This document shows, in pieces, positions 23,613 through 49,146 of a stretch of DNA of 64,000 nt. The DNA comes from an archaeon. Its GTDB lineage: Archaea > AGJL01 > Methanococci > Methanococcales > Methanocaldococcaceae. The notes under the pieces are model-generated. The model worked only from the letters and a program-made list of their open reading frames with translations, had not been told where the DNA came from and ran no database searches. The stretch covers positions 21,836-85,835 of the forward strand of contig JAJRSC010000015.1 of assembly GCA_024278985.1 (NCBI GenBank), read 5' to 3'. The translations under genes and the position numbers were made by a program. Each line of letters starts with the position of its first letter. Position 1 is the first letter of the stretch.

Positions 23613-24011
23613 ATGATATTATCAGTGGTTGGTATGGAAAATGAAAAAAATAGCTTAATAAAACTCTTTTGGATATTTCTTAGTGTATTTTTAGTATTAA
23701 TAATATTATCAATATCTGAATGGATGTATATAAATATAAGAATATATAATTATATAAAGATTACTTTTTTGATAGTTGGGATAACAATTAGTGCAATAAT
23801 TGTAGAATATATAATCCAATATAATATTTTTGAAAATAAAGGTGAGTTATCAAATATAGGGATTAATATAATATATTTAGCAATAGGTTATATTATATTT
23901 TCTCCAATAACTTTTGGAAATAAACTTATTATGATAGTTACTATACTTATTATTATATGCTTGCTTAGACATAATGATTATTTAAATTTTAAAAACATAC
24001 TAAAAAAGTAA
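23613..24011 (+). CDS. Orphan four-TM membrane protein (candidate immunity protein)
   Basis: Hydrophobic, extremely AT-rich ORF at the left edge of the accessory locus. Confidence 0.55.
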   Translation: MILSVVGMENEKNSLIKLFWIFLSVFLVLIILSISEWMYINIRIYNYIKITFLIVGITISAIIVEYIIQYNIFENKGELSNIGINIIYLAIGYIIFSPITFGNKLIMIVTILIIICLLRHNDYLNFKNILKK

Positions 24012-24045
24012 TAATACACTTAATAATGTGAAATCATAAAAAAAC

Positions 24046-24215
24046 GAAGAGTTGTTATTGATTATGGACTTTTAAAGGCTATGGAAGAAGTTGAGGATGA
24101 GGAGGAGATTGATAGAAACTGCTAAAAAGTTGTTAGAGTATTGAGGTAATGGAAGTATCTTTTAAAAATCTTTTATTAAAGATTTAACTTAAAAATATCC
24201 AGGGAAAGATAAAAT
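24046..24215 (+). pseudogene. Decayed relBE-type toxin-antitoxin remnant
   Basis: Frameshifted fragments IDYGLLKAMEEVEDEEEIDR..TAKKLLE (archaeal RelB-like) and, from ATG 24149, MEVSFK.SFIKDL..NIQGKIK (RelE-like N-terminus). Confidence 0.55.
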
Positions 24216-24235
24216 AATTTACTATTATAAATTAC

Positions 24236-24555
24236 TTTACTTTTTTATAACTATTAAAAATCTTAATAGGTAAAATATTTCCTTTTTATGCTTTACTATT
24301 CGATTAAAATCGTAATATATAGGGGTTTTGTTATTATTATTTAATGAAAAATGTAAAAAATAAAACTTTAAAAAAGTAAAGAATAGTTGGCGATGATACC
24401 TCGGTATAGAGGCGGAGCCAATATTAAGGGACTACCCAACCACCATAGAGGTGGCAAAATGAATATATTTAAAAGTAACATACTTAAAGGTTTCGCTGCT
24501 TTGATAATATTAGGAATGGTAGGAGCTTTAGTTGCTGAGCCAGTGGCTTTGGGAA
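24236..24555 (+). repeat. Direct repeat copy 1: promoter, structured leader and signal-peptide-coding region
   Basis: Closely matches 26680-27003; near-identical across the leader, and ATGGTAGGAGCTTTA..GCTGAGCCAGTGGCTTTGGGA is shared. Confidence 0.92.
24386..24454 (+). promoter_or_regulatory. Structured GC-rich RNA leader (kink-turn hairpin plus SD-occluding hairpin), copy 1
   Basis: TTGGC/GCCAA stem, GAT bulge, tandem GA/GA, CCTC/GAGG stem; then CCACC-ATAGA-GGTGG over the SD. Confidence 0.7.
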
Positions 24556-24770
24556 ATTTAGGTATAGTTTATGCAATAAAATCTTGGCATGAGGGAAATG
24601 TTAAGGGCTCTACAATTGGGGAAGGTTTAATGGATATAGGAAGTGCGGCTGTAACTGATGGCGTAGCTATATGGTTATCTGCTGAAGAAGCTTCCACAGT
24701 ATTATTAGCAGCAGGTATAGCAACTGGCGGAGTAGCATTAGCGGCAGTAGGTACTACAGTTATGGCTTAA
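24459..24770 (+). CDS. Secreted Gly/Ala-rich bacteriocin-like peptide A (103 aa)
   Basis: ATG 24459 follows GAGGTGG SD; signal peptide, AEPVALG, variable core, AEEA, hydrophobic LLAAGIATGGV tail. Confidence 0.75.
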   Translation: MNIFKSNILKGFAALIILGMVGALVAEPVALGNLGIVYAIKSWHEGNVKGSTIGEGLMDIGSAAVTDGVAIWLSAEEASTVLLAAGIATGGVALAAVGTTVMA

Positions 24771-24827
24771 TAATTCTTATTTTCCTTTTTATTTATTTTC
24801 ATAAATAACTTTATTTAATGTGATATT

Positions 24828-25109
24828 ATGCCGGATCTAATTATCATGCTATGGGTATTAACAATATTTCTTTCATTAATTGAGATTATACTATGGTATC
24901 GTTTATTGAAATTGGCTCCAAAAGAAAAAATGAATATATTGGTTAAATGTTTAGGATTAGGTGTATTATTTGCTGTAGTAAAACATTTGTTATTTAATGA
25001 CTACACTGTTATTTCAATTATTAAAGACATTACTTTATATTCTGTTATCTTTATGTCCATATTGTTTTCATATTATAAATTTATAATAAAAAGAGTATGG
25101 CATGTTTAG
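24828..25109 (+). CDS. Small three-TM membrane protein, candidate immunity partner of peptide A
   Basis: 93 aa hydrophobic, basic ORF directly downstream; GTGA SD. Confidence 0.65.
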   Translation: MPDLIIMLWVLTIFLSLIEIILWYRLLKLAPKEKMNILVKCLGLGVLFAVVKHLLFNDYTVISIIKDITLYSVIFMSILFSYYKFIIKRVWHV

Positions 25110-25355
25110 CCGAGCTATTGGATTTGGGAGATATATCAGCTTACTATTTGTATAAACACTCAAAAAATGGGGAGTATAGTAGCGCCGTTAAGGATGCTAA
25201 ACAATTGTATAAGTGTTATAAGTGGGGAAGATTAGGGATATTCAGCCTTAGAATTGGTTGCCGAAGAAGCGGTAGTTGAAGATGGTCTTTTAGCAGCAGG
25301 AATAGCTACTGGTGGAGTGGGATTAATAGCATTGGGAGTAGGGATAGGATTGTAA
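25109..25355 (+). pseudogene. Headless (orphan) peptide cassette with one frameshift
   Basis: Begins AELLDLGDI (homologous to AEPVALGDI); after a shift near 25233 it reads SALELVAEEAVVEDGLLAAGIATGGVGLIALGVGIGL-stop; no signal peptide or leader. Confidence 0.75.
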
Positions 25356-25429
25356 GAGCCTAATAATTTAATTTTAATTTTTTTAATTTTTGTGTAAATA
25401 TTCCCGAATTTAGTTTTATTATTGGTGAG

Positions 25430-25633
25430 ATGATGATGAGTAAAAAAGGGAATAAAAAATATTTTTTAAAATATTTTTTATTTTTAACAGTAAATACAAT
25501 AATTATAACTTTTCTTTTATCATATAACTTTAAGAATATATATCTAAATATATTTATGTTAAGCTTTGTCATAATAATCGATATTATATGGATGCGTATA
25601 TTAGCTAATAAATCTCAAAACAGAAACTTGTGA
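25430..25633 (+). CDS. Small two-TM membrane protein, candidate immunity partner of the orphan cassette
   Basis: GGTGA SD; basic N-terminus and two hydrophobic helices. Confidence 0.6.
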   Translation: MMMSKKGNKKYFLKYFLFLTVNTIIITFLLSYNFKNIYLNIFMLSFVIIIDIIWMRILANKSQNRNL

Positions 25634-25637
25634 AACC

Positions 25638-26172
25638 ATGAAAAAACTACCACCAATACTAACAATATCTATTTTCATAATTGGTTTTATTCTAGGAGTT
25701 GTATCAATAAATAACTTATCAAAAATCAACAATAGTGATATACCTAACTTTAAACCTAAAATACAATTTAATTTCCCTACAATCTTATTAAACAACTTAA
25801 AAGTTATCTTTTTAATGCTATCAGGAGCTATAACCTTCGGTTTATCCACTTTTATAAATCTACTATTCAACGGTTTTAATGTTGGTATCTTAATCGGCTC
25901 TACATTCCTAACTAACGAACCGTTAAAATTAATAACCGCCTTAATCCTCCCACACGGCATATTCGAAATTCCAGCAATTATCAGCTACAGCGGGCTTTAA
26001 AATACCTTATGAAGTTATCCAATACCTAAGGGATAAAAAAGAAAAACCAATAACAGAGGAAGATATAAAAGAATTCTTAAAACTATCTTTAATCTCAATA
26101 ATTTTGATTATTATAGCTGCTTTTGTTGAGGTTTATATAACCCCAAAAATAGCTAATTATCTGCTAACATAA
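25638..26172 (+). CDS. DUF95/SpoIIM-family membrane protein; frameshift at ~25980
   Basis: ILLNNLKV, NGFNVG, ILPHGIFEIPA; second frame SATAGFKIP...AAFVEVYITP to TAA 26170-26172. Confidence 0.85.
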
Positions 26173-26231
26173 GATTTAAATAGATAATTGAGGAATAGGA
26201 ATAATGAAACTAAAGATTAGGTGATTTAAAA

Positions 26232-26444
26232 ATGAAGACTGTCAAATTTAGGGTTTATTATGATGGGGAATATTGGATTGCAGAGGGTATTGATGTAAGC
26301 ATATTCACACAGGGGAAAACTTTAGATGAATTGATGAAAAATCTTAAAGAGGCTGTTGAATTGCACTTTGAAGATGAGTTAAAAGCTGGGGAGGTTATAA
26401 AAATCCTTTCTGTTTCTGAGATGGAGGTGTCAAGTGTTGCCTAA
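26232..26444 (+). CDS. hicB: HicB-family antitoxin
   Basis: YWIAE..IFTQGKTLDELMKNLKEAVELH signature. Confidence 0.85.
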   Translation: MKTVKFRVYYDGEYWIAEGIDVSIFTQGKTLDELMKNLKEAVELHFEDELKAGEVIKILSVSEMEVSSVA

Positions 26445-26679
26445 ACTTCCAGTTGTTAGTGGCAAGGACTTAATAAAATTTCTTAAAAAATTAGGTTATG
26501 AAGTCGTTAGGCAGAGAGGGAGTCATGTGAGATTAAGAAAAGAGACGGAATTTGGAATTCACAATATAACAATCCCTTATCATGAAGAGATAGCAAAAGG
26601 AACTTTAAACGCTATTTTAACCGACATTTCTAAATGGAACAACATTTCAAAGGAAGAGTTAATAAAAAAATTAAAGTAA
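26434..26679 (+). CDS. hicA: HicA-family mRNA interferase toxin
   Basis: LKKLGY..RQRGSH..IPYH.EIAKGTL.AIL. Confidence 0.9.
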   Translation: MLPKLPVVSGKDLIKFLKKLGYEVVRQRGSHVRLRKETEFGIHNITIPYHEEIAKGTLNAILTDISKWNNISKEELIKKLK

Positions 26680-27003
26680 TTTACTTTTTTATAATTATTA
26701 AAAATTCTAATGAGGAACATATTTCCTTTTTTTATACTTTACTATTTGATTAAAATCGTTATATATATAGGGGTTTTGTTATTATTATTTAATGAAAAAT
26801 GTAGAAAATAAAACTTTAAAAAATTAAAGAATAGTTGGCGATGATGCCTCGGTATAGAGGCGGAGCCAATATTAAGGGACTACCCAACCACCATAGAGGT
26901 GGCAATATGAAATTTTTAGAGAAGGGAGTATATAAGATTTTCGGAGCTATGGTTTTAGTAAGCATGGTAGGAGCTTTAATTGCTGAGCCAGTGGCTTTGG
27001 GAG
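26680..27003 (+). repeat. Direct repeat copy 2: promoter, structured leader and signal-peptide-coding region
   Basis: Matches 24236-24555; begins right at the hicA stop. Confidence 0.92.
26834..26902 (+). promoter_or_regulatory. Structured GC-rich RNA leader (kink-turn plus SD hairpin), copy 2
   Basis: Identical to copy 1 except one A>G that creates a G-C pair in the k-turn NC stem. Confidence 0.7.
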
Positions 27004-27206
27004 ATATTGGATACTATGCAGGAAAAGAATTGGCAGGAGAATCAGGAAGTGTTGTAGAAAGTTATCTCGGAACAAAAGCTGGAGAATATGCTGGTGAAAA
27101 TGCGGCTATATTATTGGCAGAATTATTTGCTGAGGAAGGAGCAGAAGCAGGAACTATTGCAGGACCTATCGGTATGGTAGTTGGAGGTATAGCTGGAGCA
27201 CTATAA
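26907..27206 (+). CDS. Secreted Gly/Ala-rich bacteriocin-like peptide B (99 aa)
   Basis: Same signal/AEPVALG head, different core, AEEG, Gly-zipper tail AGPIGMVVGGIAGAL. Confidence 0.75.
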   Translation: MKFLEKGVYKIFGAMVLVSMVGALIAEPVALGDIGYYAGKELAGESGSVVESYLGTKAGEYAGENAAILLAELFAEEGAEAGTIAGPIGMVVGGIAGAL

Positions 27207-27259
27207 ATTCTTCTTTTTATATATTTTTATATATTTAAACTTTTTATGGGGTGATTAAA

Positions 27260-27583
27260 ATGGCAAACACTTGGGTGATTGTTAGTTTTATAATAGTATA
27301 TGCATTATTAGTTCCATGGGTTGTTAATTGGATACTTCTAAAAAGGAAAATTAATTTTTTAAAATCTTTACATTATTTTGAGAAAAAATTCAGCATTAAA
27401 GAAAAAATTTTTATAACAATTATTGAACTCATTCCAGTATTTTTCTTTTTATACTCATATATTCAAATGAGTAGAAATTTGTCTATATTATATGGTATAT
27501 TTTATTTATGTTTAGGTATTTTGGTTGTCTTTCTATTAGATTACATATTAAAGACGACGTTTATTAAATATAAGAACCAATAA
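27260..27583 (+). CDS. Three-TM membrane protein, candidate immunity partner of peptide B
   Basis: GGGGTGA SD before ATG 27260; hydrophobic and basic; no visible similarity to the other partners. Confidence 0.65.
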   Translation: MANTWVIVSFIIVYALLVPWVVNWILLKRKINFLKSLHYFEKKFSIKEKIFITIIELIPVFFFLYSYIQMSRNLSILYGIFYLCLGILVVFLLDYILKTTFIKYKNQ

Positions 27584-27790
27584 GGGATTTACAACGACTA
27601 AAATTTTAATTATTATTAATATTATTATTAATAATTTTTAGTAAATATTATTAGGTAAATGAAACAAAATTTTGTATAAATAAAGTCCATTTTTATATAA
27701 AAATATTTAATTATTATTAAATTAGATAAATAAATATAAAATCTATATATACCTCTATTTTTAATATATCTTAAAAGGTTGTTAAGGTGA

Positions 27791-47552: not shown

Positions 47553-48230
47553 ATGATTATTTATTTAAAAAAAGTAGATTCTACAAATGAATTTTCCAAA
47601 ACTTTAATAGATAGAGGATATAAAAAATGTGTTATTTTAGCTGATATTCAAACAAAAGGTAAAGGTAGATTAGGAAGATGTTGGATTTCTAATTATGGAG
47701 GATTATATTTTTCTATTATTGATGAGCCCCTATATATTTACCCTATATTAATCCCTGTCTGTATAATAGAGACTCTGAAATTGGGAAGAATAAAGTTTCC
47801 CAATGATATTATTGTTAAGAATAAAAAATTATCTGGAGTTTTGATAGAAAACTATAAGAATAGAGCTATTATTGGTGTTGGAATAAATGTATATAATAAG
47901 GTTGATTTAGATACAGCCATATCACTGAAAGATTTAAATATACATTATGATAAAGTAGAGATATTAAAAAACTTTTTAAATATCTATAATAAATATTTAG
48001 AAAAATTTAAAAAGAAAGAGATTTTTAAATTTAAAATTTTAAGAAAATATAAAAGATATTCATGTAGTTTAAATAAAAATGTAAAATTAATTCTTCCAAA
48101 TAAAACAGTTTTTGGTAGAGTTGTAGATATTGATTTTGAGGGGATAACTTTAAGGACTAAAAATGGTTTGGAAAAGTATCCAACTGGGGAAATTGTTCAT
48201 TTAAGGGATGATGATACATCGATGTACTGA
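47553..48230 (+). CDS. birA: Biotin-protein ligase
   Basis: DSTN, QTKGKGRLGR.W, KFPND, KLSGVL. Confidence 0.9.
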   Translation: MIIYLKKVDSTNEFSKTLIDRGYKKCVILADIQTKGKGRLGRCWISNYGGLYFSIIDEPLYIYPILIPVCIIETLKLGRIKFPNDIIVKNKKLSGVLIENYKNRAIIGVGINVYNKVDLDTAISLKDLNIHYDKVEILKNFLNIYNKYLEKFKKKEIFKFKILRKYKRYSCSLNKNVKLILPNKTVFGRVVDIDFEGITLRTKNGLEKYPTGEIVHLRDDDTSMY

Positions 48231-48249
48231 TTATATGATGATAAATAAG

Positions 48250-49146
48250 TTATCTGACCTTTAACATTTTTAACCATTGGCAAACCCTACAAATCTCTCC
48301 ACTACAAGGATATCCACATATCTTACATCTGTTTATTTTCTCATTGTAGTCAATTATAGATAATAATTTTTCATAACCTTTTAAGATACTAAACTTAACT
48401 CCTGGTTTATCTTTCTCTAATATTGATAAGATATTTTTTATTTTATTTCTATATGATATAGAGGAGTAAGGGCATGGTTCTTTTTGATATGGTAGATTTA
48501 ACAAATCAGCATAAAGTTTAACTTCTTCCTCAGGAATTAATTTTAATGGTTTTATCCTTTTAACAAATCCCTCAGTAGTTTTTCCAAATTGAATTAAATT
48601 TTTAATATTCCCCTCAATATAGTTCATTAATATTGTCTGAGCAAAATCATCCAAATTATGCCCAATAGCAAGATAATCATAACCTTGAGAATATTTATTT
48701 AGTAAATATCTCCTAACAACCCCACAAAATGAGCAAGGTTTTCCAATATTTAACTTATCCAAGTTTGGAACAATATCATCCAATTTTATTCCAAGTTCTT
48801 TATCAAAGGAAATAATTTTTAAATTAATCTCTTCATTTTTACAAAATTCAGTTATAATTTTTCTTGCTTTATCTCTAAACCCCTTAATCCCTTCATCTAT
48901 AAATATGGCATCTATTTTTGTATCAGGAATGTCCTTAAATAACTTTTTTAAAATATATGTCATAACAATACTATCCTTACCACCACTAAGTCCAATTATA
49001 ATTTTTGTATTTCTTTTTAAAATATTTCTTCCTAATGTTTTTTTTACTCTTCTTTCAACATCATTTATAAAACATTCTCTACATAAATATTTATTAGAAT
49101 ACTTTTGATAATAAATTCCCTTATTACCACATTTACATTTAACCAT
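48250..49146 (-). CDS. tRNA 2-thiolation enzyme (TtuA/NcsA family)
   Basis: SGGKDS PP-loop, CSFCGVVRR, GHNLDD, terminal Zn fingers. Confidence 0.88.
   Translation of the reverse strand: MVKCKCGNKGIYYQKYSNKYLCRECFINDVERRVKKTLGRNILKRNTKIIIGLSGGKDSIVMTYILKKLFKDIPDTKIDAIFIDEGIKGFRDKARKIITEFCKNEEINLKIISFDKELGIKLDDIVPNLDKLNIGKPCSFCGVVRRYLLNKYSQGYDYLAIGHNLDDFAQTILMNYIEGNIKNLIQFGKTTEGFVKRIKPLKLIPEEEVKLYADLLNLPYQKEPCPYSSISYRNKIKNILSILEKDKPGVKFSILKGYEKLLSIIDYNEKINRCKICGYPCSGEICRVCQWLKMLKVR

Follow-up and report, generated by a model that had tools for sequence, protein, structure and literature searches.

The archaeal protein L7Ae binds k-turns of every kind tested in the work described by Huang, Ashraf and Lilley (2019, PMC6298567). 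To date its action on k-turns in mRNAs is known from the leader of its own gene and from a few Sulfolobus mRNAs, in which, according to the account of Daume et al. (2017, PMC5539422), it binds the k-turn and represses translation. In the l7ae-type cases set out in PMC6298567 the Shine-Dalgarno (SD) site lies in or adjacent to a weak stem-loop which is formed only on protein binding. The rules given in the same source state that folding with metal ions alone is set by two determinants, namely C:G at -1b:-1n, and C at 3b or G at 3n.

Here we describe a k-turn hairpin which occurs twice in the window (the whole stretch of 64,000 nt that was analysed), each time in the leader of a small peptide gene of a heat-loving methanogen, together with its homologs in other genomes of the order, the Methanococcales.

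The two hairpins and their genes

Each hairpin is 35 nt in length. The hairpins, the elements of copy 1 and the genes behind them are as follows; the scores were obtained with the covariance model R1, which is described below.

24387..24421, + strand: k-turn hairpin copy 1 (exact motif; 55.9 bits)
24387-24391/24417-24421, + strand: C stem UUGGC/GCCAA of copy 1
24392-24394, + strand: bulge GAU of copy 1
24395/24416 and 24396/24415, + strand: tandem G.A / A.G of copy 1
24397-24402/24409-24414, + strand: NC stem of copy 1 (U.G at 24397/24414, A.C at 24398/24413, then CCUC/GAGG)
24403-24408, + strand: terminal loop of copy 1, 6 nt
24459..24770, + strand: peptide gene 1, 103 aa
26835..26869, + strand: k-turn hairpin copy 2 (exact motif; 59.5 bits)
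26907..27206, + strand: peptide gene 2, 99 aa

Both hairpins carry the full standard k-turn sequence signature with the terminal loop on the NC helix, and the two are near-identical, the sole base differing within them being 24398 (A in copy 1, G in copy 2), which turns the A.C pair of copy 1 into G-C in copy 2. The preliminary description of this DNA had placed a k-turn in the leaders of both full-length peptide genes, and the motif is present there with the anatomy claimed. The sites were correct, and the bounds (24386-24422 and 26834-26870) one base too wide on each side. The A/G substitution had been given as the only difference between the leaders; this holds inside the hairpin, and the leaders also differ at 24376 (G in copy 1, T in copy 2), at 24458 (A/T) and, further upstream, at 24356 (A/G). 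The GC-rich island in AT-rich DNA is there as reported, the GC content being 0.525 over 24380-24419 as against 0.10-0.25 in the 200 nt upstream. Rfam 15, in which a family for the hairpin had been looked for, gave no match at gathering scores across the window and none at E <= 10 in 23800-27600.

The exact motif occurs twice in the window, and 100 dinucleotide shuffles gave no match to it. With a generic k-turn-hairpin descriptor three loci were found, compared with 0.58 +/- 0.67 (maximum 2) in 60 dinucleotide shuffles; these are copy 2 and two A+T-rich others, copy 1 having been missed because of its A.C pair. The host genome (1.1 Mb, 86% complete) contains these two copies of the hairpin and no more.

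The products of peptide genes 1 and 2 begin with a signal-peptide-like stretch, first basic and then hydrophobic; they contain a conserved motif of the AEPVALG type, and what remains is variable and rich in Gly and Ala. The family has no Pfam or NCBIfam match, and its search against the protein atlas gave no match of at least 0.9, with weak glycine-zipper-like leads only. These hypervariable secreted peptides are candidate archaeocin-like or membrane-active peptides. An archaeal SECIS element was considered as the identity of the hairpin and rejected: both peptide ORFs are open from ATG to stop (table 11), with no in-frame UGA.

The neighbourhood of the cassettes includes small membrane-protein genes after each peptide gene. 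A gene specifying a SpoIIM-family membrane protein (PF01944, 67 bits) accompanies the cassettes in the window (25638-26000; 120 aa) as well as at the locus of the MJ0792 orthologue, L042 (3398-3934; 178 aa). Between the two cassettes lie a HicB-like antitoxin gene (26232-26444) and a HicA toxin gene (26434-26679; PF07927, 65 bits), with an overlap of 11 nt, and the remnant of a third peptide gene (25097-25340). The latter is a 60-aa ORF which has kept the AEL..LGD motif and the C-terminal Gly/Ala stretch (repeat families D4 and D5), without the signal-peptide part, the leader and the k-turn hairpin. Elsewhere in the window, 48203-48262 displays the layout of a box C/D sRNA (AUGAUGA, 12 nt, CUGA, AUGAUGA, 12 nt, CUGA), with no Rfam match at gathering score.

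Layout of the leader

Around each hairpin an upstream module of approximately 230 nt is far better conserved between the copies than are the genes behind it; the two window copies are 97% identical over 24315-24463. The following elements were recognized in it.

24313..24322, + strand: TATA-like box, conserved upstream block (a)
24343..24362 and 26791-26810, + strand: conserved upstream block (b), ATGAAAAATGT(A/G)(A/G)AAAAT, between the TATA-like box and the hairpin
24370..24386, + strand: A-rich 17-nt segment before the hairpin, copy 1 (16 of 17 bases as in the first 17 nt of the MJ0792-orthologue RNA)
26818..26834, + strand: the same 17-nt segment, copy 2 (identical to L042 2428-2444)
24440-24444/24450-24454, + strand: second small hairpin CCACC/GGUGG, copy 1, a tentative structure holding the SD sequence GAGGUGG (24448-24454)
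26888..26902, + strand: second small hairpin, copy 2

Block (b) may be a promoter element, a regulator site or the start of a minor longer transcript. Short reading frames of various lengths begin in it, and in some relatives these frames end at the UGA within the k-turn GAUGA. An upstream small ORF of the MKNVEN type, beginning in this block, was considered and set aside: some relatives have ACG or GTG in place of its start codon, frame and stop vary, and the main RNA 5' end of the orthologue falls downstream of it. The TTTAAAAA box at 24367-24374 is found in the window copies and is absent from the copy in genome G005. Placement of promoters by eye in such A+T-rich sequence gave results that were inconsistent between genera.

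The k-turn hairpin ends (at 24421) 27 nt ahead of the SD site (24448), and in single-hairpin leaders the gap between hairpin and ATG ranges from 21 to 41 nt. In most leaders the sequence CCACC...GGUGG (or CUCC...GGAG) is conserved around the SD site, after the k-turn. Pairing of the SD window was predicted in 29/31 tails and in 27.4/31 when the upstream part was shuffled, a measure which does not discriminate; since the pairing is no better than in the shuffled control, what stands for the second hairpin is the conservation of its motif.

Homologous leaders and covariation

When the upstream module was used as a plain-DNA-similarity query against 40 genomes of the order, homologous leaders were recovered from genus g5 and, within the host's own genus (g1), from many genomes. 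The k-turn signature is kept in all 30 of the matches that span the hairpin. About six further matches cover the upstream part only, and one of them (L043, near 1480) has lost the 3' half of the hairpin. The covariance model R1 was built from 21 distinct hairpins and applied to the same number of genomes of the order with a cut-off of E <= 0.001. It gave matches in 17 of the 40, distributed by genus as follows.

Genus g1: 11 of 16 genomes, plus the host genome
Genus g5: 2 of 2 genomes
Genus g3: 3 of 13 genomes
Genus g2: 0 of 7 genomes
Genus g4: 0 of 1 genome

Box C/D sRNAs account for the weaker R1 matches, which score about 24 bits over 60-69 nt.

The distinct hairpins, 39 in number, are 31-39 nt long with an NC stem of 5-8 bp and a loop mostly of 4-7 nt. 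The fixed parts are GGC/GCC, the bulge and GA/GA. The tandem GA/GA is present in 39/39, the 3-nt bulge is GAU in 38 and UGU in one, and the C helix retains GGC/GCC throughout, a few G.U replacements aside, its -1b:-1n pair being C:G in 36 hairpins and U:G in the other 3. The NC stem, by comparison, has been replaced outright and occurs as CCUC/GAGG, GCCC/GGGC, GCUCC/GGAGC, GGAC/GUCC, GAAUAG/CUAUUC, GAACAU/AUGUUC and GAACC/GGUUC. In genus g3 the C stem covaries as well (UCGGC/GCCGA versus UUGGC/GCCAA). Tandem double k-turn hairpins with wholly different stems are found in g3 and in two genomes of g1 (G008 and G016); in the second hairpin of the g3 tandems the bulge reads UGU and 3b:3n is U.U.

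Covariation was assessed on alignment A4 (58 hits, 39 distinct), in which the sequences are kin, include many recent duplicates and were fitted to the model; in it 91.1% of the cells are paired as against 77.5 +/- 1.2 in shuffles, and the double-change cells number 62 as against 19.3, the observed value being reached by 0 of 500 shuffles in either case. Changes on both sides occur in 7 of the 11 pairs. Within the NC helix, where 92% of the cells are paired, they affect 4 of the 5 helix 2 pairs and a further pair. Sliding the partners by 1-3 columns left 25-50% pairing. A model-free count, carried out on 21 distinct hairpins anchored on GAUGA and GAGCC, revealed several Watson-Crick pair types at NC positions 5 to 8, including CG 18, AU 1 and GC 1 at position 5; CG 13, UA 6 and AU 2 at position 6; and UA 10, CG 9 and UG 2 at position 7. 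Approximately 40 of the 418 cells in A4 are G.U pairs, which on the opposite strand would read A.C. Because of these cells and of the asymmetric 5+2 GA loop, the RNA is read on the + strand of the gene; folding energy was uninformative as a strand test (z = -3.33 on + and -3.54 on -). Judged by its substitutions, the hairpin is a genuine, selected RNA k-turn stem-loop that has been kept by compensatory change in 5' leaders.

Genes served by the leader

For 49 of the 58 hairpins an ORF with the signal-peptide motif of the family is located within 330 nt on the same strand. The remaining hairpins are accounted for as follows.

Two truncated genes (L041, L045)
One copy lacking a start codon (L040)
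Two copies at contig ends (L040, L087)
Leaders of Fn3-like/WxLIP-like proteins with signal-peptide-like starts (L093, L094)
Leader of a 130-aa protein with a signal-peptide-like start (L089)
Leader of a 196-aa protein with a weak DUF4855 match (L088)

The hairpin always has one orientation and lies a short distance ahead of an SD site and ATG, and at E <= 0.001 no free-standing copies were found in the 40 genomes. Because of the 49/58 association and the types of the other nine, the element is regarded as a leader of exported-protein genes and not as a scattered small-RNA gene.

The same peptide core is found behind different 5' modules (window copy 2 versus L090), which points to cassette-like shuffling. 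Tandem arrays of 3-5 peptide cassettes are present at L083, L085 and L086 (g3) and at L033, L039 and L048 (g1); each cassette has its own upstream module and k-turn leader, and the 5' parts are near-identical and the C-terminal parts unrelated. By analogy, such arrays recall polymorphic toxin or bacteriocin loci.

RNA from the MJ0792 orthologue

The orthologous locus L042 of genome G005 has the hairpin at 2445-2479 and the ATG at 2511, and its ORF product is identical to the M. jannaschii 'Uncharacterized protein MJ0792'. This stretch is present in 12 RNA runs from five studies, and four of 14 runs (X14, as raw reads, and X9, X1 and X6) were examined; RNA ends were mapped in this single orthologue. 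X14 contributed 1827 reads, all antisense-read, which run into the adapter at the RNA 5' end. The 5' ends and the assembled contigs are listed below in the coordinates of L042.

2428: 5' end in X14, 1473 reads
2429: 5' end in X14, 203 reads
2427: 5' end in X14, 37 reads
2397: 5' end in X14, 19 reads
2430-2814: RNA contig of X9, which starts where the raw-read 5' ends do
2406-2820+: RNA contig of X1
2481-2820+: RNA contig of X6, which begins right behind the hairpin

The main 5' end, either a primary start or a processing site, is situated 17 nt upstream of the hairpin, and none among the X14 5' ends listed, the list stopping short of 14 weaker ones, falls in or behind 2445-2479. The conserved TATA-like box (a) precedes the minor end at 2397 by about 26 nt. 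Coverage in X14 extends from 2428 to about 2507; immediately ahead of the ATG the depth drops sharply from 699 to 10, and no reads cover the coding sequence. Because coverage stops ahead of the coding sequence, X14 is considered to derive from a 5'-end protocol or a small-RNA library. Contigs of other studies (X9, X1) span both the leader and the coding sequence, which are therefore joined in assembled RNA. In the MJ0792 orthologue the hairpin lies wholly within the mRNA.

From the likeness of its 17-nt segment, the RNA 5' end of copy 1 is predicted to lie near 24370. Because the G005 copy is without the TTTAAAAA box, a start inside the hairpin is excluded for the host organism only indirectly, via covariation. 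In MKFLEK-type genes codons 2-4 form a T5 run, 10 nt behind the SD hairpin (L042 2516-2520; window 26912-26916). Early termination at this run is conceivable; the X14 coverage ends just ahead of it.

Two findings that might have told against a k-turn in the leader, RNA 5' ends inside or downstream of the motif and the loss of the GA/GA pairs in homologs, were thus looked for, and the ends mapped in this one relative and the signature of the hairpin-spanning DNA matches went the other way. The canonical k-turn of the preliminary description is backed by covariation, which it had suggested examining in homologous leaders, by the strand-specific G.U pairs and by the position of the RNA 5' ends of the MJ0792 orthologue, ahead of the hairpin. 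Its suggestion of L7Ae-dependent control or stabilisation agrees with the findings and may hold, though in a form unlike that of the documented L7Ae translational switch. Its proposal of a dispersed small RNA family finds no support as written: the strong matches are not scattered, most lie directly upstream of one gene family, and the others are decayed copies, copies at contig ends and leaders of four other genes.

Proposed function and alternatives

Two L7Ae-family genes were identified in the host genome. In addition to C:G at -1b:-1n, the second published determinant of folding, C at 3b or G at 3n, is present in 28 of the 39 distinct hairpins; the 11 with U:A, A:U or U:U at 3b:3n would, by the published rules, need protein in order to fold. 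Minimum-energy folding, with a model which gives no credit for G.A pairs or protein, yields the hairpin in 34 of 43 distinct leaders at 37 C and in 28 of the 43 at 80 C. Because -1b:-1n is C:G and 3n is mostly G or 3b C, and also because the stem is G+C-rich, 5-8 bp in length and about 27 nt upstream of the SD site, a constitutively folded RNP is favoured over an SD-occluding switch.

On balance we consider it probable that this selected leader element carries a constitutive L7Ae RNP near the 5' end, the most likely role of which would be to protect the mRNA. We infer that L7Ae, a ubiquitous k-turn-binding protein encoded in the host genome, would bind the leader k-turn, and that the bound hairpin, constitutively folded near the 5' end, would protect the leader and the mRNA against 5'-end-dependent decay. 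Such protection would set the level of the peptide mRNA and tie it to the free L7Ae pool, and the SD hairpin next to it may in addition have a part in translation. The single-stranded 5' tail of 17 nt is long for classical 5'-hairpin protection and speaks against the stabilisation reading.

An L7Ae-dependent translational OFF switch, in which the k-turn, perhaps with the CCACC/GGUGG hairpin, would hide the SD site when free L7Ae is high, appears unlikely, although it deserves to be weighed with care. It has a precedent in the autoregulation of L7Ae and the repression of other mRNAs via k-turns, as reported in PMC5539422 and PMC6298567, and it would explain the conserved motif around the SD site in most leaders and the further complementarity, in one of them (L034), between the SD region and the 5' arm of the k-turn stem. 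However, in the documented cases, as those papers describe them, the SD site is in or beside the k-turn stem-loop and the RNA is unstructured without the protein, whereas here the distances to the SD site and the ATG are those given above, the G+C-rich stem is predicted to fold alone, and the pairing of the SD window is no better than its control. A stable small RNA of about 80 nt, derived from the leader and acting in trans or as an L7Ae sponge, with the link to the mRNA secondary, we hold to be improbable. The confinement of all 1827 X14 reads to the leader, with no depth in the coding sequence, and the beginning of the X6 contig at 2481, directly behind the hairpin, are what it would produce; a 5'-end protocol would look alike in X14, the X9 and X1 contigs link the leader to the coding sequence, and the constant orientation and position of the hairpin before SD and ATG, with the want of free-standing copies among the 40 genomes, argue against it.

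A little less probable again is a pseudo box C/D particle, that is, recruitment by the hairpin or hairpins of Nop5 and fibrillarin besides L7Ae into a guide-less RNP on the mRNA. The heptamer corresponding to box C is GCGAUGA in 35/39 distinct hairpins (C for U at position 2 of RUGAUGA) and GUGAUGA in 3/39, and the tetramer corresponding to box D is the consensus CUGA in 12; a box C/D sRNA of G005 (L095 371-431) has the same stem and boxes at its end and reaches 24 bits when scored by the hairpin model, and the tandem hairpins recall the two k-turns of an sRNA. Against this, guide regions and C'/D' boxes are absent, the NC stem runs without interruption for 5-8 bp up to its closing loop, and the tetramer is CGGA, not CUGA, in 22 of the 39 (CAGA in 4 and UAGA in 1). 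It is scarcely credible, lastly, that the hairpin is a hitch-hiking part of a recombination-homogenised 5' cassette or a protein-binding DNA palindrome. The 5' module (the upstream part and about 33 codons) is indeed far better conserved than the rest of the gene, and one peptide core may stand behind differing modules. Homogenisation, however, yields identity and not compensatory double changes, the G.U pairs and the asymmetric GA loop are sensible only as + strand RNA, and at L042 the hairpin is transcribed.

Beyond the constitutive, protective L7Ae RNP, which we continue to prefer, a wider reading is offered tentatively and with some doubt: the box C/D-like k-turn might be a post-transcriptional tag on the mRNAs of exported proteins in the Methanococcales, the 5' end of which would be both defined and guarded by a cap-like L7Ae RNP, much as by the snoRNP on SPA lncRNAs. 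If true, L7Ae and possibly further sRNP proteins would assemble on the 5' leader, the output of hypervariable secreted peptides would be coupled to the state of ribosome biogenesis via free L7Ae, and tandem hairpins would give dosage or cooperativity.

Significance and comparison with known systems

The literature search, the coverage of which did not extend to older lists of G+C-rich spots and transcription start sites, returned no description of this element and no paper on 'MJ0792'. If our reading is true, the peptide leaders would constitute a multi-copy natural k-turn-leader regulon, phylogenetically supported, in another archaeal lineage than that of Sulfolobus and attached to one class of genes, those of secreted hypervariable peptides. 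An architecture so unlike that of the known switch (stable, distant from the SD site, sometimes tandem) would make it possible to test directly whether archaeal mRNAs are stabilised or marked by k-turn RNPs, and through the MJ0792 orthologue in M. jannaschii the element is experimentally reachable. As a clean candidate it further lends itself to a new Rfam family, and it could supply thermostable k-turn parts of natural origin.

The peptide leader resembles the k-turn in the archaeal l7ae leader, as described in the accounts of Daume et al. (2017, PMC5539422) and Huang, Ashraf and Lilley (2019, PMC6298567), in that it is a stem-loop of the 5' UTR which combines a GAU bulge with tandem G.A/A.G pairs and would be expected to bind L7Ae. 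It differs in the gene served, which specifies a secreted peptide and not L7Ae; in the SD site, which is neither in nor beside the k-turn; in a hairpin which is long, G+C-rich and predicted to fold protein-free, while the l7ae elements of those accounts are unstructured until bound; and in the presence of two tandem hairpins in some leaders. Neither of the two defining features tested was found, which, as far as the predicted fold goes, places the element outside the class of l7ae autoregulatory leaders. The host's own l7ae leader (L096 1400-1456, G000:C25), which lies outside the window, has CCCUCC paired to the SD sequence GGAGGG with flanking GA and GGA, and is thus of the SD-in-stem arrangement described for l7ae autoregulation.

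The hairpin is also like the terminal motif of box C/D sRNAs, with a box C near the consensus and a consensus box D in the minority noted above, and its terminal stem UUGGC/GCCAA is identical in the box C/D sRNA of the congener (L095); in the host genome, at 86% completeness, a pattern search for a box C/D sRNA with the same ends gave no matches. Unlike such sRNAs it has no guides, no C'/D' boxes and no body of 50-70 nt, and it sits in an mRNA leader. The 5' stem-loop of U4 snRNA consists of an outer C stem, a 3-nt bulge, GA/GA and a short NC stem closed by a loop, and the peptide-leader hairpin shares this topology; U4 is a eukaryotic spliceosomal RNA bound by 15.5K/Snu13, and not an mRNA element.

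In human SPA lncRNAs the RNP reportedly defines and protects the 5' end. These 5' snoRNA-capped transcripts (PMC12084880), long RNAs whose 5' end bears an RNP of the box C/D type, are the nearest stabilising analogue of the peptide leader; as that paper describes them they are eukaryotic, contain a full snoRNA and acquire their ends from exonuclease trimming up to the RNP, whereas the peptide leader has a 17-nt tail. Synthetic L7Ae/k-turn switches, in the form described for example in PMC3105309, likewise place a k-turn hairpin in the 5' UTR for control by L7Ae. They are engineered and act mostly on eukaryotic cap-dependent scanning, whereas the peptide-leader element is natural, SD-distal and archaeal, and probably represents a new natural case of a protein-controlled mRNA.
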